DNA from: Candidatus Magasanikiibacteriota bacterium
GTDB taxonomy: Bacteria > Patescibacteriota > Patescibacteriia > Magasanikbacterales > UBA922
Assembly (NCBI GenBank): GCA_016207245.1
Contig: JACQQA010000012.1
Location: 5,722 to 69,721 of the forward strand
Direction: 5' to 3'
DNA length: 64,000 nucleotides
Position numbers and translations under genes: made by a program
In this document: in pieces, positions 2,764 through 47,705 of the stretch
Layout of the letters: each line of letters starts with the position of its first letter
How positions within the stretch are numbered: position 1 is the stretch's first letter
Notes under the pieces: model-generated
What the model was told of the DNA's origin: nothing
Seen by the model: the letters and a program-made list of their open reading frames with translations, nothing else
Database searches by the model: none

Positions 2764-3103
2764 AATGAATTTATTCACTTATTCCGTAGCGCCCCGACGT
2801 TACGTCGGGATCAACGAAATAAGCAATTTGGTTAAATGTATCTATCGACTCTCGCGAGCCTCGACCTATTTGATAGACACTGCCCTTTTCTCCGCCTTGC
2901 TTTGCCAGCCTTGGGCTGTGGGCGGAGCCAACTGTATGGCTAAATAATTTCCCCCTAGCGGGGAATCACCGGCTTTGATTTATCTAAATTTATCAGAACC
3001 GCTGATCCCCCGCCATGGCGGGACTGACCATACAATTTTTAAAGAGCATTGTTAATAATTTATCCAGCACCTTCCCGGAATACCTCGCAAGAAGGTGCTG
3101 GAT

Positions 3104-7933: not shown

Positions 7934-10399
7934 ATGGAGACTCTGGAAAAGGTCGTGGCGGTCGCAATGCTGTTCCTGTTCGCGATTCTGTTCGTTTCTG
8001 CGGGCTGTTCTACTGGAGTCAAATGGCAGTGCAAGAAGGACTTGGACTGCGACGACGACAATCTCTGCACCAAGGATTCTTGCAGTGCTGGCATCTGCCA
8101 CTTCGCGAAAGTCAAAGGGTGCGACAACCAGCAGGTGTGCGAAGACGACACTTGCGACAAGACTAACGACGGCGAGTCCAAGGTTGACTCGTCCCCGCCT
8201 CCAGACAATCCGTACAATCCACCGCCGGACACTACCACACCTGAACCCAGTCCGGACACAACGGACACTATTGACAGTGGAACGGAGAACGAGGAAGGCG
8301 GGACGACGGAGACGACCGACACCGCCAACCACGATACGGCGGATACGGACGCGACTAATGGAGATGCGGAAGTTGAGAGTGCTGACGAAGAAGTTGCCGG
8401 ACAGGATGCGGAAACGGCGGAAGCGGAGACAACTCAACTGCCGTGTATCACTTGTGACAATGACGTTGAAGCGTCAGATGCTGGTAGTGATACTGCCGGC
8501 AATGGAGCTGAGGCGTCAATCGCTAATCCCGATTCAAGTCCGGACACTACGGACAGCGGAACGGGGAACGATGGGACGGACGGGGACGGAGATGGCGGAA
8601 AAATCGTTCTGCCACTTCAAGATACTGTCGTCGGGACTGATACTCCAACTCCAGATGTTGTGATGACTAACGACAGCAGTGTCGGTCAAAACGACGATGG
8701 CACGGCAGGACTTGTAGAAATCGGAGTTGACAGTGAATCAGAGGTTGGTCAGAACACGGAAACGACGGAAGAGATATCTCAATCGCCGTGCATCTGCGCT
8801 GACGACAACAATCCATGCACCGACGACTTCTGCAACGACGCGAACCAGTGCGTTCACGAATCAATCGTGGACTGTTGCGTCAAGAACGTTGAATGCGACG
8901 ATAGCGATGTCTGCAATGGAGTGGAAACCTGCGACGCGAACAAGTGCGTCGGTGGTGAACCTCTCGTCTGCGACGACTTCAATGTCTGCACCGACGACTA
9001 CTGCGACTCGATGGACGGCTGCGTCTACGAGCCAAACTCAAACCCCTGTGACGATGGCAATGCCTGCACGATTGGCGATGTCTGCGAACAGGGCGAGTGT
9101 GCATACACGGAAACGTGTGAGTGCATCACAAATGCCGAATGCGGAGATGGAAACAAGTGCACCACTGAATCGTGCGTTAGCAACAAATGCAAGTACGATA
9201 ACGTGGGATGCAACGATTCCGACGCTTGCACCACAGACACCTGCGCTCCGGAAATCGGCTGTGTGTTCGCACAGATCGTCGTTGACGACAACGATGCCTG
9301 CACGGACGACAGTTGTAATTCGGACACGGGCGTGGCGCACATCATCAAGGACTGCGATGACAAGAATGCTTGCACTGCGGATTCCTGCGTCGATGGCCAG
9401 TGCGTCCACACTAACACTTGCGAGTGCATCACGAACCTTCAGTGCGATGACGAAGACATTTGCAGTGGAGTGGAAACCTGTGACGACAACAAATGTGTCG
9501 CGGGACAAAAACTCATTTGCAACGACTTCAACGTCTGCACCACCGACACATGCGACCCGGACAAGGGTTGCGTGTACGAACCGGTCAGCGGCTGCTGTAA
9601 GGCAGACGTTGACTGCAACGACCTCAACGAGTGCACCGGCGACGCGTGCGTCAAGTCCAGCGGTGAGTGTGTACACTTCGGCATCATGGGCAACTGTGAT
9701 GATACCAACGAATGCACCACTAACGACGCGTGCAAGGACAGCAAGTGCGTCGGCGGGCCAGCTCCTAGCTGCAATGACAACAATGTCTGCACCGCGGACT
9801 CGTGCGATTCGGCCATCGGCTGTCAGCATTCAGCTGTCAGCGACAACACGTCGTGCGCGGACAGCACAGTCTGCAATGGCGCGGAAACGTGCCAAAGCGG
9901 ACAATGCGAATCTGGCACGCCGCTTGTCTGCGACGACGGAAATCTGTGCACCGACGACTCATGCGACATGGCAGTCGGCTGCCAGCACGCCAACAACTCC
10001 AACCCCTGCGACGATGGCAACGCCTGCACGATTGACGACAGCTGTTCGCAGGGCGCATGTGAATCCGGTGCTCTCAAAAACTGTGGCGACGGGAAGAATT
10101 GCACCCTTGACATGTGCGATGTCAAGCTGGGATGTTTCAATCCTGTCTGGGGTGTTAACCCCAATGATGACTGCGGTAAATGGGACACAGACGGCGACGG
10201 CAAACAGGACAACGGCGCTGACGTGGACTCCGATAACGACGGGGTCTGCGATCCTGGCGAGTCGCAAACCACCGGACAACCTTGCGTCGGGTCGGATAAT
10301 TGCTGGCTAAAAACAAATCCCGCCCAAACCGATACCGACAACGATGGTCTTGGCGACGCCTGCGACCCGGACAAAAATGGAGATGGCATCCCCGACTAA
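7934..10399 (+). CDS. Secreted cysteine-rich repeat protein: CTDC-type (Dictyostelium-repeat / DUF4215 / Myxococcus Cys-rich-repeat-like) repeats followed by thrombospondin-type-3-like calcium-binding repeats
   Basis: At least 13 repeats with CxDxNxCTxDxCxxxxGC spacing (NVCTDDYC, NACTIGDVC, NKCTTESC, DACTTDTC, NACTADSC, NVCTTDTC, NECTGDAC, NVCTADSC, NLCTDDSC, NACTIDDSC, NCTLDMC). The C-terminus DTDGDGKQDNGADVDSDNDGVCDP...DTDNDGLGDACDPDKNGDGIPD has DxDxDG spacing. An acidic T/D/E-rich linker lies between them. Signal peptide METLEKVVAVAMLFLFAILFVSAGC follows an RBS (GAGGTG) before the ATG at 7934; the tracked ORF starts at 7883. GC content is clearly above the window average. Confidence 0.75.
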   Translation: METLEKVVAVAMLFLFAILFVSAGCSTGVKWQCKKDLDCDDDNLCTKDSCSAGICHFAKVKGCDNQQVCEDDTCDKTNDGESKVDSSPPPDNPYNPPPDTTTPEPSPDTTDTIDSGTENEEGGTTETTDTANHDTADTDATNGDAEVESADEEVAGQDAETAEAETTQLPCITCDNDVEASDAGSDTAGNGAEASIANPDSSPDTTDSGTGNDGTDGDGDGGKIVLPLQDTVVGTDTPTPDVVMTNDSSVGQNDDGTAGLVEIGVDSESEVGQNTETTEEISQSPCICADDNNPCTDDFCNDANQCVHESIVDCCVKNVECDDSDVCNGVETCDANKCVGGEPLVCDDFNVCTDDYCDSMDGCVYEPNSNPCDDGNACTIGDVCEQGECAYTETCECITNAECGDGNKCTTESCVSNKCKYDNVGCNDSDACTTDTCAPEIGCVFAQIVVDDNDACTDDSCNSDTGVAHIIKDCDDKNACTADSCVDGQCVHTNTCECITNLQCDDEDICSGVETCDDNKCVAGQKLICNDFNVCTTDTCDPDKGCVYEPVSGCCKADVDCNDLNECTGDACVKSSGECVHFGIMGNCDDTNECTTNDACKDSKCVGGPAPSCNDNNVCTADSCDSAIGCQHSAVSDNTSCADSTVCNGAETCQSGQCESGTPLVCDDGNLCTDDSCDMAVGCQHANNSNPCDDGNACTIDDSCSQGACESGALKNCGDGKNCTLDMCDVKLGCFNPVWGVNPNDDCGKWDTDGDGKQDNGADVDSDNDGVCDPGESQTTGQPCVGSDNCWLKTNPAQTDTDNDGLGDACDPDKNGDGIPD

Positions 10400-17111: not shown

Positions 17112-19667
17112 TTATACCACACTTTTCACAATAGTGGTACGCGTCTCCGCCCCAAACTTCTTCTTCAACACTTCTCCAACTCTCACATGCGCCGCGTCAA
17201 CTTCCGCGGATTCGAGTGTCTTGCTGTCTGAACGATAAGTAATGTGATACGCCAGACTCTTTTTACCGGCCGGTAAATTCTTGCCCTCGTAAACGTCAAA
17301 TATTTCCACGCTAGCAATCAGCCGGTCAACTTTTTTAAGCTCAAAAATAATTCGCGCGTGTTCAACTTTTTTATCAACCACAAAAGCAATGTCGCGAATT
17401 ACTTCCGGATAAACCGGCAATGGTTGATAGCGCAAAGAATTTTTTAAAACCAACAATAATTTTTCTAAATCCACTTCCGCCACTACCACTCGCTCGTTAA
17501 TTCCCAAACGCTCGGAAAATGACGGGCTGATCTCGGTAATCGCACCCACGCCTTCGCCATTTACTAAAATTTGCGCCTGCCTGCCCCTGTGGATAACTTT
17601 TCCGAGTTCATGGATTGCCGGCTTTAAAACCACGACACAACCAAGACGATCCAACACACCTGTCAAAGCCGCGGAAAGCTCATAAAATGGCGTTAAAACG
17701 CCTTTACCGGCAAAAACCAGACCCAAATACAGCGGCTGGCCGGGCAATAATTCATCGCTGTTTCCGGAAACCCGCAAACCGGCGACCTCGGAATTAAACA
17801 CTCTGCCGATCTCAAACATTCTTACCGCGTCAAAACGATGCAAATTCACTTCCGCGTTTTCCAACAGGCCGGGCCACAAACTGCGGCGCAAAAACGGACG
17901 ATCTTTAGCCACCGGATTGTCCAACTCTATTAAATCAGCGGGGTCAATTCCCAATCTCTCCAATAATTGTGGCGATACGAAAGAATAGTTATACACTTCG
18001 CTGAAACTAAATTCCAGCGCCAAAATTTCTTTTATTCTTCTTTCTAAACTTCTCAACTCGTTTTTAGGCGGAGGAACAATTGGAAACTTTGGCAATGATG
18101 TTGGAATATTGCCATAACCGTAAATCCGCGCCACTTCTTCCACCAAATCTTCGGCAATGGAAATATCTTTTGTCGCGCGCCAGGTTGGAATTTTAACCAA
18201 CAAAACATCTTTTTTTTCTTTAACTTCAAAATCAAGATCGGATAAAATTTTAACCGCCTGTTTCTTTTCTATTTCCAAACCGATTTTTTTAGATAAAAAC
18301 TCCAGCGGCAATTCAATCGGGCCTTGCTGTAAATGAAAATCTTTCACGTCAATAATTTTACTGGCGATTTTCGCGCCCGGGCACAATTCCAATGTCAATT
18401 CCAGCGCTTTTCGCAAAGCCAGTTCGCAATTGTTCGGGTCCAAACTCTTTTCAAACCGCGCCGAGCTGTCAGTGCGCAAACCAAGTTTGACGGAAGTCCG
18501 GCGCACATTCGCGGCATTAAAATTCGCTGATTCATAAATTACAGCAGTCGTCTCATCTTCAACTCCGCTTTCCCGCCCGCCCATCACCCCGGCCAACGCT
18601 ATCGCCTTATCATTTGAACTAATCACCAAATTCTCCGGTGTCAACTCAAACTCTTTCCCGTCCAAACTAACAAACCTCTCTCCCCCTTCCGCCCTTCGTA
18701 CAACAATCGTGATTTTTGATTTTTGATTTTTGATTTTTGATTTATCAAATGCGTGCATCGGCTGTCCCAAATCCAACATTACATAATTGGTGATATCCAC
18801 AATATTATTTATCGGCCGCAGACCGACTGCCAGCAATTTTTTTTGCAGCCAATCCGGCGACGGCGCGACTTTAATCCCCTCAATCGCCACCGCCATATAG
18901 CGAGGACATAATTTTTTATCCTCAACTCGTACGGACAGGTCGCGACCTGTCCCTATCTTGCAATCTTTAATTTTATAATTCACTAATTTTTTATTAAACA
19001 ACGCTCCCACTTCTCTCGCCATTCCATAATGTCCCCACAAATCCGGCCGATTGGACAAACTTTTGTTGTCAATTTCAAAAATAATGTCATCCAATCCGAG
19101 GACTGCGGACAACGCCTGCCCGCCGATGAGGTGGGGACTACCGACGATTTTGTCATTCCCGTGTAAACGGGAATCCATCGCGTTCGATTTCTGGATCCCC
19201 GCCTCCGCGGGGACGACAAATGAGAGGTCTAGAATCTCTTTCTCGTCTTTTAAGGGAAACCTGTCTCCCAATCCAATCTCGGTTGACGCGCAAATCATGC
19301 CGAATGATTCCACGCCGCGGATTTTCGCTTTTGCCAATTCAACCAATTCGCCTTCGCCGTGCCAGCGCACTTTCGCGCCAATTCTGCCAAACGCGACTTT
19401 CATCCCCTCTTTCACATTTGAGCCGCCGCAAACCACTTGCCAATCTTGCGCGCCGTCATTAACTATACAAACTTTTAACTTATCCGCGTCAGGATGTTTA
19501 ACAACTTTTTTTACCAAACCAACAACAATGTTATCCAAATCTTTTCCTTGCTTAACAATTTTTTCCACCTCCACCGTGCTCATTGTCAATTTCAACGCCA
19601 ACTCTTCCGGAGTGAGAGAGTTTGGCAGATCAATGTATTGTTTGAGCCAGTTAAAACTTATTAACAT
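17112..19667 (-). CDS. pheT: Phenylalanine--tRNA ligase beta subunit
   Basis: 851 aa; N-terminus MLISFNWLKQYIDL and a B3/B4 region (DDIIFEIDNKSLSNRPDLWGHYG). Contains apparent in-frame repeat-element insertions at 19152-19217, 18950-18969 and 18711-18745. Confidence 0.9.
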   Translation of the reverse strand: MLISFNWLKQYIDLPNSLTPEELALKLTMSTVEVEKIVKQGKDLDNIVVGLVKKVVKHPDADKLKVCIVNDGAQDWQVVCGGSNVKEGMKVAFGRIGAKVRWHGEGELVELAKAKIRGVESFGMICASTEIGLGDRFPLKDEKEILDLSFVVPAEAGIQKSNAMDSRLHGNDKIVGSPHLIGGQALSAVLGLDDIIFEIDNKSLSNRPDLWGHYGMAREVGALFNKKLVNYKIKDCKIGTGRDLSVRVEDKKLCPRYMAVAIEGIKVAPSPDWLQKKLLAVGLRPINNIVDITNYVMLDLGQPMHAFDKSKIKNQKSKITIVVRRAEGGERFVSLDGKEFELTPENLVISSNDKAIALAGVMGGRESGVEDETTAVIYESANFNAANVRRTSVKLGLRTDSSARFEKSLDPNNCELALRKALELTLELCPGAKIASKIIDVKDFHLQQGPIELPLEFLSKKIGLEIEKKQAVKILSDLDFEVKEKKDVLLVKIPTWRATKDISIAEDLVEEVARIYGYGNIPTSLPKFPIVPPPKNELRSLERRIKEILALEFSFSEVYNYSFVSPQLLERLGIDPADLIELDNPVAKDRPFLRRSLWPGLLENAEVNLHRFDAVRMFEIGRVFNSEVAGLRVSGNSDELLPGQPLYLGLVFAGKGVLTPFYELSAALTGVLDRLGCVVVLKPAIHELGKVIHRGRQAQILVNGEGVGAITEISPSFSERLGINERVVVAEVDLEKLLLVLKNSLRYQPLPVYPEVIRDIAFVVDKKVEHARIIFELKKVDRLIASVEIFDVYEGKNLPAGKKSLAYHITYRSDSKTLESAEVDAAHVRVGEVLKKKFGAETRTTIVKSVV

Positions 19668-19668
19668 A

Positions 19669-20733
19669 TCAGAATTGTTTTAAAAAACGCAGATCCCCGC
19701 CCTGTAAATGTCTAATATCATCAATACAATACCTTTGCATCACCAAACGAGTCATGCCTAAGCCAAAAGCGAAACCCGTCCATTCTTTCGGATCCAAACC
19801 GCCGTATGCCAAAACTTTCGGATGCACCAGACCGCACGGCATTGTCTCAATCCAGCCTGAATGTTTGCACGCCCCACAGCCAACACCGCCGCAGATCAAA
19901 CATTTTATATCCAATTCAAAACCGGGTTCAACAAATTGAAAATGCCCGGGACGCAAACGCGTCTCAACATCGCGCTTAAACACTCCTCGCAATAATTCCT
20001 TCATCACGCCGATTAGGTGAGAGACAGAAATATTTTTATCCACAACCAAACCTTCCAATTGACAAAAAGTGTGCTCATGCGCCGCGTCAGTCGCTTCGTT
20101 GCGGAAACAACGCCCAGGCACCACCATCCGAATTGGCGCGCCATACTTCTCCAAAGCGCGCACCTGCATAGACGATGTTTGGGTGCGCATTACCCAATCA
20201 GAATGGCTTTTGATATAAAAAGTGTCTTGGGTATCGCGAGCCGGATCGTCAGATGGCATATTAAGCGTGGTAAAATTATAATACTCGCTCTCCAACTCCG
20301 GCCCATCCAGCACCATAAAACCCATGGAAGTAAATAAATCTTCCAAATTATTCTGAACTAAAGTGTTGGGATGCAAATGTCCGGCCTCTTTTGCCGGTAA
20401 CTTTGGCTGAGTAACGTCAATAGTTTCTTTTTCTAAAATATCTCCCATTTCCGACATTTTAATTTCCTCTTTTTTCTTCGCGAACACTTCTTCCAGTTCA
20501 TGTTTAACTTCATTTGCTAATTTGCCAAACTCCTGCCGCGCTTCAACAGAAAGGTCTTTCAAATTTTTCATCGCCTGCGTCAGCTCGCCGGAACGGCGGG
20601 AAAAAAATCTTTGTTCCAATTCTTCCAACTGCAAGACATTCTTAATCTCCACCAAACTCTTCAAAAAATCCTTTTTAATTTTTTCTAATTGTTCCTTCAT
20701 AAATAAAGATACTAATGCTTTTTTATTTGTCAT
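19669..20733 (-). CDS. pheS: Phenylalanine--tRNA ligase alpha subunit
   Basis: Class II motifs FRNEATDAAHEHTFCQLEG and GFAFGLGMTRL. The tracked start at 20733 lies inside a tandem repeat element; the ATG at 20698-20700 (MKEQLEKIKKDF...) is the more likely start. Confidence 0.9.
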   Translation of the reverse strand: MTNKKALVSLFMKEQLEKIKKDFLKSLVEIKNVLQLEELEQRFFSRRSGELTQAMKNLKDLSVEARQEFGKLANEVKHELEEVFAKKKEEIKMSEMGDILEKETIDVTQPKLPAKEAGHLHPNTLVQNNLEDLFTSMGFMVLDGPELESEYYNFTTLNMPSDDPARDTQDTFYIKSHSDWVMRTQTSSMQVRALEKYGAPIRMVVPGRCFRNEATDAAHEHTFCQLEGLVVDKNISVSHLIGVMKELLRGVFKRDVETRLRPGHFQFVEPGFELDIKCLICGGVGCGACKHSGWIETMPCGLVHPKVLAYGGLDPKEWTGFAFGLGMTRLVMQRYCIDDIRHLQGGDLRFLKQF

Positions 20734-20798
20734 TCCCGCGAAAGCGGGAACCCAGAAATCGCGTTGTCATTCCCGCGAAAGCGGGAACCCAGAAATCG
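20729..20798. repeat. Tandem direct repeat (2 x ~37 bp) of hairpin unit GTCATTCCCGCGAAAGCGGGAACCCAGAAATCGCGTT
   Basis: Two near-identical units, each a GTCAT-led hairpin (TCCCGC-GAAA-GCGGGA). Member of the GTCAT...ATGAC hairpin element family. Confidence 0.8.
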
Positions 20799-24955: not shown

Positions 24956-25042
24956 CTCTCTCCTCCTTATTAAAAAAGAACAACCCGGCCGAACTTCGGC
25001 ACGATGATTGATATGGTATAATGAACGCTAAACGGTGTCAAT

Positions 25043-25603
25043 ATGATAATTATAAAACAAAAATTACACCACCGAAAAAATAATCGCCTGCGTGGCTACG
25101 ATTATTCATCGAACGGTTTGTATTTCATAACAATTTGCGTCAAACACCGATTAAAACACCTCGGCGGTGTTTGGAACGCAAAAATGTGCGTCAATCGATT
25201 CGGTTCAATCGTTTTGCAACAATGGAATTGGTTGGCCGAACAATATCCGTATATTATATTGCACGAATTCGTCGTCATGCCAAATCACGTACACGGTATT
25301 GTGCAAATTGATTCATCATTGTTATCGTGTAGGGACAGGTCGCGACCTGTCCCTACACCGAATGCCGACACCACAATCAACCATATAACAAATAAAAAAA
25401 CGAAAATAAAACCATTGTCCGAAATCGTCGGCGCGTTCAAAACCACATCATCAAAATCAATCCATCGGAATGGTTTCCCACAATTCCAATGGCAACGATC
25501 ATTTTACGACCATATTATCCTTGACGAAAAATCATATTTTGCCATCACCAATTATATAAAACAAAATCCCGTCATTTGGTGGCGGGATAGAAATAATTTG
25601 TGA
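25043..25603 (+). CDS. REP-associated tyrosine transposase (RAYT)-like / IS200-IS605 TnpA-family HuH Y1 transposase
   Basis: GYDYSSNGLYFITICVKHR (N-terminal RAYT-like block), HuH motif VMPNHVHGIV and catalytic Tyr block YFAITNYIKQNPV. A 28-bp perfect palindrome (25329-25356) sits between the HuH and Tyr motifs. Confidence 0.7.
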   Translation: MIIIKQKLHHRKNNRLRGYDYSSNGLYFITICVKHRLKHLGGVWNAKMCVNRFGSIVLQQWNWLAEQYPYIILHEFVVMPNHVHGIVQIDSSLLSCRDRSRPVPTPNADTTINHITNKKTKIKPLSEIVGAFKTTSSKSIHRNGFPQFQWQRSFYDHIILDEKSYFAITNYIKQNPVIWWRDRNNL

Positions 25604-27120: not shown

Positions 27121-29673
27121 TTGCGGTGTATGGCTATACCTATGTCTACCAACCCAACCCAGCTTCTGGATCGTTTTTCCACGCATTTGCGCAATGTAAT
27201 CGCCAAAGCCATGACGCTGGCAAATTCTCTTGAACATGACGAGGTGTCGCCTCTGCATCTTTTGTTATCTTTAAGCGAGGAAAAAGGCTCGGTCGGCGCG
27301 GAAGTACTAATACGGTTTAACTTTAATCAAAAATACGCCTTAAACCTGCTTTCGGAAAAACCTCAGTTGCGCCGAAATAAGGGCGACATCGCCATCGCTA
27401 ATCTGCCGGAACTTGACGCTAAAGCCAAACAAGCGGTTGAACGCGCGATTTTAATCGCTTACGAGCGCAACCACCATCATATCGGCACTGAACATTTGCT
27501 GTTTGCTTTGGTCGTCGGACATAGCCAAGAAATTGAAACCGCGCTGAAACAAAATAAAATATCTCTTGAGGATGTTAATAATCAGCTTGATGATATTTTC
27601 CAAAGCACCAGCCGCTTTCCGGAAATTGAAGACGTGTCTAGTGTGATGGAACATTTGGAAGAAATGGTGGGAAAAGAAAATATCGGCGCGCTCCCCCGCC
27701 CGCAACCGCTTGCCGCCAACAGTAAAAATAAAAAACCGCAAATCACGGCTTTGGATATTTTTACCAATAATTTAACTGACAAAGACGCGCAAAAAAATAT
27801 TGATCCGGTCATTGGCCGGGAAAATGAAATTGAGCGGGTAATCCACATTCTCTCACGCCGAACAAAAAACAATCCGGTCTTGGTCGGCGAACCGGGCGTA
27901 GGCAAAACCGCGATTGTTGAGGGATTGGCAAAAAGAATCAGCGAGGGTAATGTGCCTGACATTTTAAAAAATAAAAAAATCTTCGCGCTTGACGTTACTC
28001 TGCTTTTGGCCGGAACGATATATCGCGGTGAATTTGAAGCGCGCCTGAAACAAATCGTGGACGAAATCGCCAAATCGCCGGATTATATTCTATTTATTGA
28101 CGAACTGCACAATATTATCGGCGCCGGCTCCAGCCAAGGCGCGATGGACGCGGCGAATATTTTGAAACCGGCCTTAGCGCGCGGCAACCTGCGCTGTATC
28201 GGCGCCACCACGATTGATGAACACAAAAAATATATCGCTTCCGACCCGGCGCTGGAACGGCGTTTTCAATCGGTCATCATTGATGAGCCGACTGAAGCCG
28301 AAGCTAAAATGATAACGCGCGGAATTAAAAAATATTACGAAGATTATCATAACGTGAAAATCAGCGATGACGCCACGGACGCGGCCGTGGAATTAAGCGT
28401 CCGCTATATCCACGATAATTTTCTGCCGGACAAAGCGATAGATCTGCTTGACGAAGCCTGCGCCGCGGCGCGAACCAAACAAAAACACACGCCGATTGAG
28501 GCGCAAAGACAAAGATTTTTGGCGTTAAAAGAGCGGTGCATAAATTTAAAAATAACCGCGATCAAAAAAGAACAACTGGACGCGGCGTTGGAATTAAAAA
28601 ACGAATTGAAAGAAATAGAAGACCAGATCAGTCTTTTAAATCAAAAAACGGCTAACGCGAAAAAAACCGTCGGCAGTAAAATCACGCGCCAAGACATCGC
28701 CCGCGTGCTGGAGCGGCGGCTGAATATTGGTCTGGAAACAATATTGGCGGATGAATGGAAAAAACTGGCAGACCTGTCAGACAGATTGGAAAAACAAATC
28801 ATTGGCCAAGATGAAGTAATAGGATCAATCATCAAACACCTGCGCCAATCTTATTTGGGTTTGCGCGATCGCAAAAAACCTTTAGCATCTTTTCTTTTTG
28901 CCGGACCGAGCGGGGTTGGCAAAACCGAATTGGCAAAATTGCTGGCGCGCGAACTTTATAATGATGAAAAATCGCTGGTCAAACTTGATATGAGCGAATT
29001 TTCCGAACCGCACAGCACCGCGAAGCTCCTCGGCTCCCCGGCCGGATACATCGGCCACAAAGACCGCAATCGATTTTTGGATGATATCAAACAAAAGCCG
29101 TATTGCGTGGTATTGTTTGATGAAATTGATAAAGCCCACCGCGACGTGGTTAAGTTGCTTTTGCAGATTCTTGACGAAGGGCAGTTGACTGACAGCAATG
29201 GCAAAAAAACCTATTTTAATCACGCGATAATTATCTTAACCACCAATCTCGGCTCGGAATTCTTCAAATCCGCCGGCATCGGCTTTGGCCGGGACGCGAA
29301 AGACACAAAAAATCGCGATCAGACTGTCATTGGCAAATTAAAAGACGAATTTTCGCCGGCGTTGATCAACCGCTTGGATTCGGTGGAAATTTTCTCGCCC
29401 CTCACCCAAGCCGCGGTCGCCAAAATCGTGGAAGCAAACTTGAAGCAGGTCAATGAACAGCTGGGTAAAAATCAACAGCTTAATATCAAGTCCGACCAAA
29501 CCGCGATCGCCTCTTTGGCTTCTGAATCTTTCAGCGAAGAATTCGGCGCGCGGCAGGTGGACAAATTCATCAGAGACGTAATGCAGGAGCTGGTGGTTAA
29601 GATTATGGAAAAAGAAAAAAAGAAAAAAAATTACACTCTCAAGAGAGAAAAGACGGGGTATAGTTTGAGATAG
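27121..29673 (+). CDS. clpC: Clp/Hsp100 AAA+ chaperone (ClpC/ClpB family)
   Basis: Clp N-domain repeats at the N-terminus, two nucleotide-binding domains with Walker A GEPGVGKT and GPSGVGKT, and a short coiled-coil middle domain; 850 aa. Confidence 0.85.
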
Positions 29674-29689
29674 AGGCTTGTCATCCCCT

Positions 29690-29755
29690 TGAAAAAGGGG
29701 ATCCAAAAATCACACACGATGGATTCCCGTTTCCACGGGAATGACAATTCATAAA
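29690..29755. repeat. Complete two-hairpin MITE-like element (GTCATCCCCTTGAAAAAGGGGATCCAAAAATC ... GATTCCCGTTTCCACGGGAATGAC)
   Basis: Terminal inverted repeats GTCAT/ATGAC; each half is a GC-stem hairpin. Lies downstream of clpC. Confidence 0.8.
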
Positions 29756-33380: not shown

Positions 33381-33428
33381 AAAGGGATCCCTCGGCTCTC
33401 CCGCCATGGCGGGATCGCTCGGGATGAC
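33381..33428. repeat. Partial hairpin element containing perfect palindrome CCCGCCATGGCGGG and an ATGAC terminus
   Basis: GGGATCCCTCGGCTCTCCCGCCATGGCGGGATCGCTCGGGATGAC. Same CCCGCCATGGCGGG core as at 3008-3021, 36836-36849 and 47163-47176. Confidence 0.7.
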
Positions 33429-36781: not shown

Positions 36782-36835
36782 TACCCCTCCTTTTTTGTAA
36801 TTAACATATACTGCGTTGCCTCGCCACGCCGTAGT

Positions 36836-36924
36836 CCCGCCATGGCGGGACAAAAGCGGGCATTGTAAAGAACGAACGACTGGATTGCTTAGTCAACGCC
36901 TCATCGGCGACTCCTCGCAATGAC
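36836..36924. repeat. Hairpin elements: palindrome CCCGCCATGGCGGG (36836-36849) plus half-element CTGGATTGCTTAGTC...CTCCTCGCAATGAC (36880-36924)
   Basis: Related to the right half of the 23973-24067 element. A terminator-like hairpin (AAAACCCCGCTTTTTCAGCGGGGT) follows at ~36931-36958. Confidence 0.7.
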
Positions 36925-43743: not shown

Positions 43744-45108
43744 TCAATCCTTTTTTTGTTTATATTCCGGCGGAGAAATCTGCAAATCAATCCGGTTTAA
43801 GTCGCGCGGGAACAGCGTGGCGTATTTGATATTATCAATATCCAGCAGTTTGGCGGTCATGCGCTCCAAACCGATTGCCAGCCCGCCTTCCGGAGGCATG
43901 CCATATTTAAACGCCTCCAAATAAAACTCAAATTTTTCCGGCTTTAAGCCCCACTTTTTAATATTGGCAACCAACTGATCATAATCATTAATACGCTGAC
44001 CGCCGGTGGTCACCTCTACCCCGCGGAAAAGCAGATCAAAACTCTTGGTAAATTCCGGATCGGTTTCATCAGGATAAGTATACATTGGACGTTTGACGGT
44101 TGGATAATGCGTTACAAAAACAAAATCCGACTGAAATTTTTTCTTTGCATACTCACAGATCCATTTTTCTTCATTCGGTTCTAAATCAGGCTCTTTGGTG
44201 TGGTCAATTTTTGTTTCTTGTTTAATTATTTCCTGCGCCTCGCGTAATTTGAAAACCGGTATTTTTTCCGGCAATTCCGGACGAATATAATTTAATAATT
44301 TTAATTCCCGCGCGACTGTTTTATCCAGATGATCCAACAAAAAGCGCAAAAATTTTGTTTCCAATTCCATGACATCGGTATGGTCTTTTATCATGCCAAA
44401 TTCCAAATCCAAACTGGTATATTCATTTATATGACGCGTAGTGGCATGCTCCTCGGCGCGGTAAACATTGCCGACCGTGAACACGCGCTCAAACGCGCCA
44501 ACCATTATTTGCTTATAAAACTGCGGACTTTGCGCCAAATATGCTTTGGTATCAAAATATTTAATTTCAAAAACATTGGAGCCACCCTCGGTGGAATCAC
44601 CAACGATTTTTGGACACTGAAATTCAGTAAAACTTTCACCGCGCAAAAATGCCCGAAACGCTTCCACGATTTCGCTCTGCACCTTAAACACTGCACGCCA
44701 CTTTTCAGAGCGCAATGTGAGCGGTAAATTATCCAAATGCACGTCTAAACCGATTTTCTCGTCCTCTAAATCCAACGGCAGTGGCTCGGCTTTTGCCAAC
44801 ACTTTAAATCCTTTTGCCAACACCTCAATTTCGCCGGTGGCCAAATTCGGATTAATATTTTTTACCCCGCGTTTATTTACCAGACCCTTGATTTCAACTA
44901 CATACTCGCTATGAACGTCTTTAAGTAAATCATAATCCACGCCCAAATCATTTGGCACGCAAACTACCTGGACTAAACCGGCGCGGTCGCGCACATCCAA
45001 AAACACAATTTTGCCCAAATTGCGTCTAGTCTGCACCCAGCCGGCGATAGTTACTTCTTGGCCGACATGATTGACATTAAGTTCTCCGCAAGTGTTTGTA
45101 CGATTCAT
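43744..45108 (-). CDS. aspS: Aspartate--tRNA ligase, short archaeal/eukaryal-type (class IIb)
   Basis: Anticodon-binding OB fold (FLDVRDRAG), the AspRS-specific QSPQFYKQ motif and motif 3 GGLAIGLERMTAKLL. 454 aa rather than ~590. Confidence 0.8.
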   Translation of the reverse strand: MNRTNTCGELNVNHVGQEVTIAGWVQTRRNLGKIVFLDVRDRAGLVQVVCVPNDLGVDYDLLKDVHSEYVVEIKGLVNKRGVKNINPNLATGEIEVLAKGFKVLAKAEPLPLDLEDEKIGLDVHLDNLPLTLRSEKWRAVFKVQSEIVEAFRAFLRGESFTEFQCPKIVGDSTEGGSNVFEIKYFDTKAYLAQSPQFYKQIMVGAFERVFTVGNVYRAEEHATTRHINEYTSLDLEFGMIKDHTDVMELETKFLRFLLDHLDKTVARELKLLNYIRPELPEKIPVFKLREAQEIIKQETKIDHTKEPDLEPNEEKWICEYAKKKFQSDFVFVTHYPTVKRPMYTYPDETDPEFTKSFDLLFRGVEVTTGGQRINDYDQLVANIKKWGLKPEKFEFYLEAFKYGMPPEGGLAIGLERMTAKLLDIDNIKYATLFPRDLNRIDLQISPPEYKQKKD

Positions 45109-46625: not shown

Positions 46626-47705
46626 CTAATTTTGTGCGGATTTCCTCAACTTACACACAAAAAACCCCTCAATCTCCTTTGTCGGCATTATCCGCAGGGC
46701 TTTTTTGACAACATCTGGATTTACCACCTTATTTTTCCACAACTTCACACACGACAATCGCCGAATATCTAATACTCCAATATCCAATATCTCGCCATCG
46801 CCATTCCGTTCCAAAAATTTCGTCATCTGCAATTCGTTCTCCTCCGGCGCGAAGGTGCAAGTGGAATAAACTAAAATCCCGCCGGGTTTTAGCGCGCTCC
46901 AGGCGGCGAGCAAAAGCCCCCATTGCTTATACGTCATTTCTTTTATTTTTTGCTCTTTCCAATAACCGTGGGTTTTCGGCTCGCCGGCGATAAACCGCGC
47001 TTCGGCGCTGCAGGGGGCGTCAAGCAATATCTTGTCAAAATATTCCGGATACTCGCGGCACAGAGCGCCGCCGTGCTCCATCCTCAACGAAAACCGCCAA
47101 CTGTCATTGCGAGCGACCGAAGGGAGCGCGGCAATCCAGTATCCGTCCTGGATTGCTTCGTCCCCCGCCATGGCGGGGTCCTCGCAATGACAGACGATAC
47201 CGAGCGCCTCCATATTATGCTTTAACTTAAAAAATCTAATTTTGTTATTATCATTCGCCACTAATTCACCTCTTAGCCCTCCGCCCAAGGCGGATCCGTC
47301 TGGGTCGGACATCAACGCCGCGATCTGCGAAGTTTTGCTTCCGGGCGCGGCGGTCAAATCCAAAACTTTTTCTCCGGGTTGGGGATCCAAAACCAACGGC
47401 GGAATCATACTCGCCAAACTTTGGATATAAATTTTTCCCTCATTATAAATATCCAAATCCGTTAATTCTCTTTTGCTTTTGTTTAACAAAATAAACGCGT
47501 CTTTATACCACGAAACTTGTCTGATCTTAAATCCTCGCTCAACGAGTGATGTAGTGATGATGTGATGCGGTGATTTAAGTGTATTAACGCGAAAAGTAGT
47601 AGAACGTTCAACAAAAGTTTTCTCAATCTCGCGAAACAAAGAAACGCCAAACATCTCTGTCAGGCGCTCTAAAAATTTTTCCGGCAGACTACGATCATGG
47701 AACAT
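46626..47705 (-). CDS. rRNA (cytosine-C5) methyltransferase, RsmB/RsmF (NOL1/NOP2/Sun) family
   Basis: SAM-binding DLTAAPGSKTSQIA, catalytic DAPCS and YSTCT motifs. Contains three apparent in-frame repeat-derived insertions (46764-46791, 47103-47191, 47283-47297). Confidence 0.8.
   Translation of the reverse strand: MFHDRSLPEKFLERLTEMFGVSLFREIEKTFVERSTTFRVNTLKSPHHIITTSLVERGFKIRQVSWYKDAFILLNKSKRELTDLDIYNEGKIYIQSLASMIPPLVLDPQPGEKVLDLTAAPGSKTSQIAALMSDPDGSALGGGLRGELVANDNNKIRFFKLKHNMEALGIVCHCEDPAMAGDEAIQDGYWIAALPSVARNDSWRFSLRMEHGGALCREYPEYFDKILLDAPCSAEARFIAGEPKTHGYWKEQKIKEMTYKQWGLLLAAWSALKPGGILVYSTCTFAPEENELQMTKFLERNGDGEILDIGVLDIRRLSCVKLWKNKVVNPDVVKKALRIMPTKEIEGFFVCKLRKSAQN

Follow-up and report, generated by a model that had tools for sequence, protein, structure and literature searches.

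A probable RAYT gene carrying a GTAG-footed REP palindrome in frame in a Magasanikbacteria genome

The 64-kb stretch of DNA analyzed here (the window) contains a gene that very probably encodes a RAYT (TnpAREP) enzyme of TnpAY1 subclass 2.4, which corresponds to Bertels RAYT Group 4 (Quentin, Siguier, Chandler & Fichant 2018, BMC Genomics 19:475; PMC6006769), and that carries a copy of the cognate REP of this enzyme in a tolerant, disordered loop of the protein. Motifs, best NCBIfam family and predicted fold identify the product as a RAYT/TnpAREP-type Y1 HuH tyrosine transposase, and the palindrome is a true REP with GTAG feet, from the family associated with this RAYT clade. The features concerned are as follows, numbered from the first letter of the window.

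18933..18952, within pheT (17112..19667, minus strand): second REP core, with degenerate feet GTAC and CTAT, read as IGTGRDLSVRV
25014..25022, plus strand: candidate extended -10 element TGGTATAAT, 20 nt 5' of the ATG, picked out by eye
25043..25603, plus strand: putative RAYT / TnpAREP gene, TnpAY1 subclass 2.4-like (Bertels Group 4), an ORF of 186 aa with an ATG start
25277..25303, plus strand: HuH block MPNHVHGIV (H82, H84), aligned with VVLPEHMHCI of E. coli TnpAREP
25310..25402, plus strand: variable loop hosting the REP, residues ~90-120, from strand beta3 (HuH) to helix alphaC, delimited from model and alignment
25327..25358: intragenic double-foot REP, perfect 32-bp palindrome GTGTAGGGACAGGTCGCGACCTGTCCCTACAC, with GTAG at 25329-25332 and CTAC at 25353-25356
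25490..25522, plus strand: WQRSFYDHIIL block, equivalent to the region of E. coli TnpAREP that contacts the GTAG guide (W94, Q95 ... R104)
25553..25570, plus strand: putative catalytic tyrosine motif YIKQNP (Y171; N175 at Y+4), aligned with YIYINP of E. coli

Identity of the gene and its product

The open reading frame and the sequence blocks behind the original prediction of a 186-aa RAYT-like HuH protein, namely MPNHVHGIV, YIKQNP and the further conserved block GYDYSSNGLYFIT, are all in place. In an alignment of 35 homologues, H82, H84, W150, Y171, N175 and P176 are invariant, and the Y+4 residue has been described as the third metal ligand in Y1 enzymes (PMC6006769). The tyrosine motif has glutamine at Y+3; among 120 homologues variants of Y-I-x-N-N-P are the commonest, and YIKQNP is found five times. 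Profile searches bore out the predicted family, with REP_Tyr_transpos (NF047646) as the best NCBIfam family (E = 2.7e-16), but left the scores short of the cut-offs, at 59.8 bits against an equivalog cut-off of 80 for that family and 22.7 bits against a gathering cut-off of 23 for Pfam Y1_Tnp (PF01797), where the match is split in two by the loop insert. A precomputed PF01797 match is present in many close homologues. The database search returned 1439 homologues, several of which are named RayT by JGI, and the NCBI entry with 100% identity to the protein is annotated as a hypothetical protein of a Candidatus Magasanikbacteria MAG, an annotation that the present assignment would correct.

The structural evidence points the same way. 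An AlphaFold model computed from the 35-homologue alignment has a mean pLDDT of 85.2, and the best 30 PDB matches found by Foldseek (E 5e-7 to 3e-4) are all Y1 transposases, either TnpA of IS200/IS608/ISDra2 or the E. coli TnpAREP structure 4ER8, the last having the lowest rmsd among the PDB matches (2.8 Å over 164 columns). When the alignment profile was compared with the PDB, 4ER8 was the sole match, and the HuH, WQ...R and Y...NP elements line up. Residues W94, Q95 and R104 of E. coli TnpAREP are listed as contacts to GTAG (PMC6006769). In the profile alignment to 4ER8, the equivalents of the first two are kept as W150 and Q151, and the equivalent of R104 is Leu160 (25520-25522), at a position that is arginine or lysine in 108 of the 120 homologues and leucine in three, including the protein described here and its nearest relative (P0002).

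Both the fold and the similarity to Pfam Y1_Tnp are common with TnpA of the IS200 family, and would also be consistent with the gene being the transposase of an autonomous IS200/IS605-type insertion sequence. We consider this most improbable. The gene is present in a single copy in the 64-kb window, as the original prediction expected of a RAYT, it has neither a tnpB neighbor nor flanking subterminal hairpins, its chromosomal context is shared with a related strain recovered from two independent samples, and the best family and the sole match of the alignment profile are REP_Tyr_transpos and 4ER8. A weak tblastn match at 44515-44850 (E = 0.12) was considered as a second Y1 gene and rejected because the 454-aa ORF in which it lies looks, as read from the sequence, like an aspartyl/asparaginyl-tRNA synthetase.

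A consensus scan of the RAYT gene for promoters and terminators returned no convincing promoter and no terminator. The element TGGTATAAT may be an extended -10 promoter element of the gene; it was not called by the scan because it is without a -35 match, and a similar element, TGATAGAAT, lies at the same position upstream of the gene in the nearest relative (L081).

The palindrome in the gene and other repeats in the window

The 28-bp palindrome GTAGGGACAGGTCGCGACCTGTCCCTAC that had been predicted in the coding sequence at 25329-25356 is there, and it lies inside a palindrome that is perfect over 32 bp. As single-stranded DNA the 32-bp sequence folds with -16.4 kcal/mol (z = -7.3), a stability equaled by none of 200 shuffles. 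It is in frame, covering codons 95-106, and is read S-CRDRSRPVPT-P. Written with its 5' foot, the REP core is GT[AG]G-GGACAGGTCNNGACCTGTCC. The 20-bp core is found exactly twice in the window, even when three mismatches are permitted, against 0.00 copies expected by chance.

The palindrome falls in the loop that joins strand beta3, which bears the HuH motif, to helix alphaC. In the AlphaFold model, pLDDT is ~51 at residues 100-120 and secondary structure is absent over residues 93-124. The loop is ~30 aa long here and ranges from 7 to 73 aa in homologues. Between beta3 and alphaC, subclass 2.4 enzymes have an insert that varies in both length and sequence (PMC6006769), and the disordered loop corresponds to this insertion domain.

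The second copy of the core lies within pheT. The original prediction was correct that it encodes IGTGRDLSVRV, but had placed it at 18950-18969, 17 bp away from its actual position at 18933-18952. Alignment with solved PheT structures gives no net change in length at this copy. Elsewhere in the same protein, ~26 residues (VVPAEAGIQKSNAMDSRLHGNDKIVG; 19142-19217, minus strand) are extra relative to the solved PheT structures, and a copy of another hairpin repeat, GTCATTCCCGNGNAAACGGGAATCC, at 19150-19184, supplies the coding sequence of this segment. The pheT gene is therefore host to two unrelated palindromic repeats, both of them in frame.

At the RAYT locus, the gene and the 1 kb to each side of it contain a single GT[AG]G-footed hairpin, the internal one, and the locus is thus not a REPtron, an arrangement that characterizes a locus and not a protein; nor was a REPIN doublet of this REP found in the 64-kb window. 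The abundance of hairpin repeats originally claimed for this DNA is not borne out: GC-rich perfect hairpins with a stem of at least 8 bp number 13 in the window, the RAYT hairpin being the longest by far, and its own REP accounts for two copies in 64 kb. The REP/RAYT system of this Magasanikbacteria genome is minimal, with no flanking REPs and one other copy, that in pheT, in 64 kb.

Three further hairpin families are present in the window. The GTCATTCCCGCGAAAGCGGGAA family has four copies, one of them in frame in pheT; two others form a perfect tandem pair 37 bp apart (20727-20798), and a diverged copy (29678-29712) directly follows an 850-aa ORF that ends at 29673. None of the copies at 20727-20798 and 29678-29712 has a GTAG foot. 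The TCCCGCCATGGCGGGA family takes the form (T/C)CCCGCCATGGCGGG(A/G) and likewise has four copies (3008-3023, 33399-33414, 36834-36851 and 47163-47178), of which only one is preceded by GTAG, at 36831. Another small family is CCTGCCTGCCGGCAGGCAGG. It had been proposed that the RAYT mobilizes repeat families in the plural. Because the search for GT[AG]G feet on the three families yielded only the one TCCCGCCATGGCGGGA copy at 36831, we dropped the link between them and the RAYT enzyme. Repetition of another kind is seen in the gene at 8047-10042, which contains at least nine diverged repeats of a Cys/Asp-rich unit (CDDDNLCT.DSC-like), detected as the direct-repeat families D1, D2 and D14.

Homologous loci, dispersed copies and the nearest relative

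We examined 80 metagenomic loci with RAYT homologues of 33-53% protein identity, mapping the loop by separate tblastn searches with the N- and C-terminal halves of the protein and counting hairpins with a stem of at least 9 bp. Such a hairpin lies in the loop at 63 of the 80 loci, compared with elsewhere in the gene at six. The frame between the two halves of the protein is preserved across the loop at 79 of the 80 loci, and the loop contains a stop at only one. At 11 of the 80 loci the exact core is found in the loop, and frequently there is a further copy 40-170 bp 5' of the start codon. Most homologues in the 35-member alignment encode either GRDRSRPVPT or VGTGRDLSL in the loop, which are the two open readings of a single DNA palindrome. 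The codon phase of the GT[AG]G foot at the loci is uneven, with 28 feet in phase 0, seven in phase 1 and one in phase 2, the phase in which GTAG would give a TAG stop.

The stems of these hairpins vary under feet that do not. The loci contain 40 distinct double-foot hairpins with fixed GTAG/CTAC feet, among them GTAGGG-ACAGGTCGCGACCTGT-CCCTAC, GTAGGG-AACGGTCGCGACCGTT-CCCTAC, GTAGGG-GCGGGTTTCAAACCCGC-CCCTAC and GTAGGG-GCACGGCATGCCGTGC-CCCTAC. In the 39 that were aligned, 98% of cells are paired and 10 of 13 stem pairs vary on both sides; because the hairpins counted were pre-selected as palindromic, this covariation documents how diverse the stems are beneath constant feet and does not prove the structure independently, and the unbiased comparison is that of the loop with the rest of the gene (63 versus 6 of 80). 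At 24 of the 63 loci with a loop hairpin, a REP flanking the gene, at -20..-140 and/or +13..+140, is the same variant as the internal one, and these 24 loci are REPtrons whose REP matches the internal copy. At three loci the loop contains REP left arms in tandem, followed by one complete hairpin (L003 369-614, L018 2920-3105 and L052 10214-10489; the arms include GTGHDDAGTGHDDAGTGHDD..., VGNGRDGDEIIVGNGRDGNEI... and GTTNMGMTNVGMTNMG...). These left-arm arrays suggest slippage at the site or a succession of partial events.

The REP is not confined to RAYT loci. A scan of one genome per species, from which 8-kb stretches (L083-L202) were taken, detected the exact core in at least 120 genome stretches from many phyla, and the palindrome is therefore far from unique to its two sites in the window. 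Among the matches listed, Pontibacter has several loci per genome, and P. mucosus is a culturable carrier with several dispersed copies; further hosts are found in other Bacteroidota, Patescibacteria, Nitrospinota, Planctomycetota, Gammaproteobacteria, Omnitrophota, Spirochaetia, Fibrobacter and elsewhere. For most core copies among these matches there is no RAYT homologue in the 8-kb stretch, and 110 of the 138 copies in the stretches lie outside long ORFs; the remainder include in-frame copies in large unrelated proteins. In Bacteroidota, tandem arrays of the same REP were observed (L112 1890-2173, L161 4067-4923 and L119 6613-7433), with periods of ~44/88 bp and 279 bp and spanned by long open frames; in L119, several REP copies lie within and around a RAYT homologue. 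When copies from the matches listed in the genome scan, the 80 metagenomic loci and the window were pooled (n = 158), 125 were far from any RAYT gene, and among these matches 81 of the 125 dispersed copies have a single foot, the canonical form of a REP.

The regularity with which a hairpin occupies this loop could indicate that it is a selected cis element, acting as an autoregulatory or marking site, as a master copy for co-inheritance, or as an mRNA hairpin that throttles translation. Loop hairpins occur in 79% of the homologues and always in the same loop; the identical 28-mer is found there in homologues that share 45-53% protein identity, a distance at which synonymous sites would be saturated; internal copies are mostly perfect palindromes; and at the RAYT locus of the window the internal REP is the only copy kept. 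In addition, among the matches listed, double feet are commoner on copies in or beside a RAYT gene (14 of 33) than on dispersed copies (17 of 125). We nonetheless consider such an element unlikely. The loop hairpin is absent from 17 of the 80 homologue loci, and the nearest relative, described below, has deleted its REP while the rest of its gene remains under purifying selection. The repeats differ from locus to locus in number and in their place in the loop, and L003, L018 and L052 have tandem partial arms, a pattern that looks more like repeated insertion or slippage than a fixed element. The identity of the 28-mer is equally well explained by re-insertion from a pool of REPs that is kept uniform by enzyme recognition. 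We regard as more doubtful still a more specific form of the idea: that selection maintains the REP in the gene as a self-carried master copy or an autoregulatory site, through which hairpin and enzyme stay matched, and that in the streamlined Patescibacteria nothing else of the REPtron is retained. If the REP were selected, the strongly conserved enzyme would act mainly on its own locus or have a host function that is independent of REP spread.

The nearest relative was recovered from two independent samples with the same neighbors (L081 234-686 and L082 137-589) and is 93% identical to the RAYT protein over the residues that they share. It has lost, through a 108-bp in-frame deletion that keeps the ORF open, the REP, the rest of the loop and KIKPLSEIVGA, the start of helix alphaC, and with the latter the nearly invariant residues K121, I122, L125, S126, G130 and A131. 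A short TCG/TTGT-like similarity is seen at the deletion junction. Over the remaining parts of the gene, the comparison with L081 gives a pN/pS of 0.08, indicating that the RAYT protein is under purifying selection.

It is important to consider that the RAYT gene in the window may be a relic, or have been re-purposed, and no longer move REPs, in which case its two REP copies would be fossils. Consistent with this are the presence of only two copies in 64 kb, one of them, in pheT, with degenerate feet, the lack of flanking REPs at the RAYT locus, the leucine that replaces the conserved Arg/Lys at a GTAG-contact position in both the protein and its relative, and the loss from that relative of the nearly invariant residues named above. 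However, the pN/pS of 0.08 shows continuing selection on the protein, none of the catalytic residues has been lost, and the internal REP is perfect over 32 bp, which is contrary to what neutral decay predicts. On balance, we think that a defunct or re-purposed gene is somewhat unlikely.

We therefore return to the reading of the gene as a subclass 2.4 RAYT with its cognate REP in a permissive loop. If it works as E. coli TnpAREP does (Messing et al. 2012; PMC3479197), the enzyme would use the GTAG guide to bind a hairpin with a GT[AG]G foot in single-stranded DNA, and would cut and rejoin the DNA through a phosphotyrosine intermediate, with Y171 as the nucleophile and the HuH histidines and N175 coordinating the metal ion, an activity that would seed and maintain the family of REP hairpins. 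The copy in the gene lies in the disordered loop that connects the HuH strand with helix alphaC, the only region of the protein in which additional residues are tolerated, and it would be retained because its frame is one of the two in which GTAG does not give rise to a TAG stop. That the gene of the enzyme should itself be a preferred host is most likely the consequence of the enzyme acting in cis, close to where it is synthesized, combined with repeated re-insertion or conversion from the pool of REPs. Cis action together with a single permissive loop would be the simplest account of the choice of host, and the data do not call for a selected role of the hairpin in cis. To our knowledge, none of the subclass 2.4 enzymes has been the subject of biochemical evidence.

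Significance and comparison with known systems

The original prediction presented a RAYT together with abundant hairpin repeats that invade coding regions as a notable combination for a reduced genome; a RAYT with a hairpin within its gene was published for subclass 2.4 in 2018. REPs inside tnpAREP genes, with the frame preserved, are a hallmark of that subclass (PMC6006769), and the arrangement at the RAYT locus is therefore not new; the present finding of a RAYT with its REP leaves current understanding unchanged. What it does is extend to Patescibacteria, and to the diversity seen in metagenomes, an oddity already in print, that of RAYT genes with a REP of their own, and add to it the use of only the two stop-free frames, the covariation of stems beneath fixed GTAG/CTAC feet, and the match by lineage between internal and flanking REPs. 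Our literature search found no paper on RAYTs in Patescibacteria. Consisting of a single gene under strong purifying selection, its internal REP and one stray copy, the system may be a convenient one in which to ask what role a RAYT has for its host.

Subclass 2.4 is defined by NH[IFV]H, WQ and YIxNNP motifs, the lack of a C-terminal extension and, as a criterion, an 8-aa insertion at the end of helix alphaB; its REPs are of the double-foot type, with 5' GT[AG]G and 3' C[TC]AC, and its hosts are named as Cyanobacteria, Bacteroidetes and various phyla (PMC6006769). Bertels et al. (2017) found Group 4 over 17 bacterial classes, with flanking 16-mers that are only modestly repeated (PMC5581495). 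The gene described here resembles subclass 2.4 in its NHVH and WQ motifs, its length of ~190 aa, the lack of a C-terminal extension and the variable insert between beta3 and alphaC, and also in its double-foot GT[AG]G...C[TC]AC REPs, the REP in frame in its own gene and a patchy spread over multiple phyla. It differs in its host, a Magasanikbacteria MAG from Patescibacteria, which PMC6006769 does not list among its phyla, in having YIKQNP in place of YIxNNP and leucine at the equivalent of R104, and in having no flanking REPs.

With E. coli TnpAREP (YafM; 4ER8), a RAYT of subclass 2.2 and Group 2 (Messing et al. 2012; PMC3479197), the protein shares the Y1 HuH fold, the HuH, WQ and Y-x3-N motifs and a hairpin with a 5' GTAG guide, but the sequence identity between the two is ~18%, and the inhibitory C-terminal tail of the E. 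coli enzyme is missing from the protein described here. The E. coli REPs are imperfect, bulged and single-footed, and flank the gene in BIMEs rather than lying inside it. The TnpA enzymes of IS200, IS608 and ISDra2 (subclass 1.1) have in common with it the catalytic fold and a chemistry that acts on hairpins in single-stranded DNA; they belong to multicopy units with subterminal hairpins at both ends and often a tnpB, none of which is seen here. Finally, the Rickettsia RPEs and the GTAG and CGTC REPs of Di Nocera et al. (2013), of which GTAG REPs were reported inside unrelated genes (PMC3733652), offer a parallel to both the pheT copy and the RAYT copy, in that a functional protein accommodates a short in-frame palindrome in one of its surface loops. 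In those systems the hosts are unrelated genes, whereas here one host is the gene of the very enzyme that would recognize the repeat.
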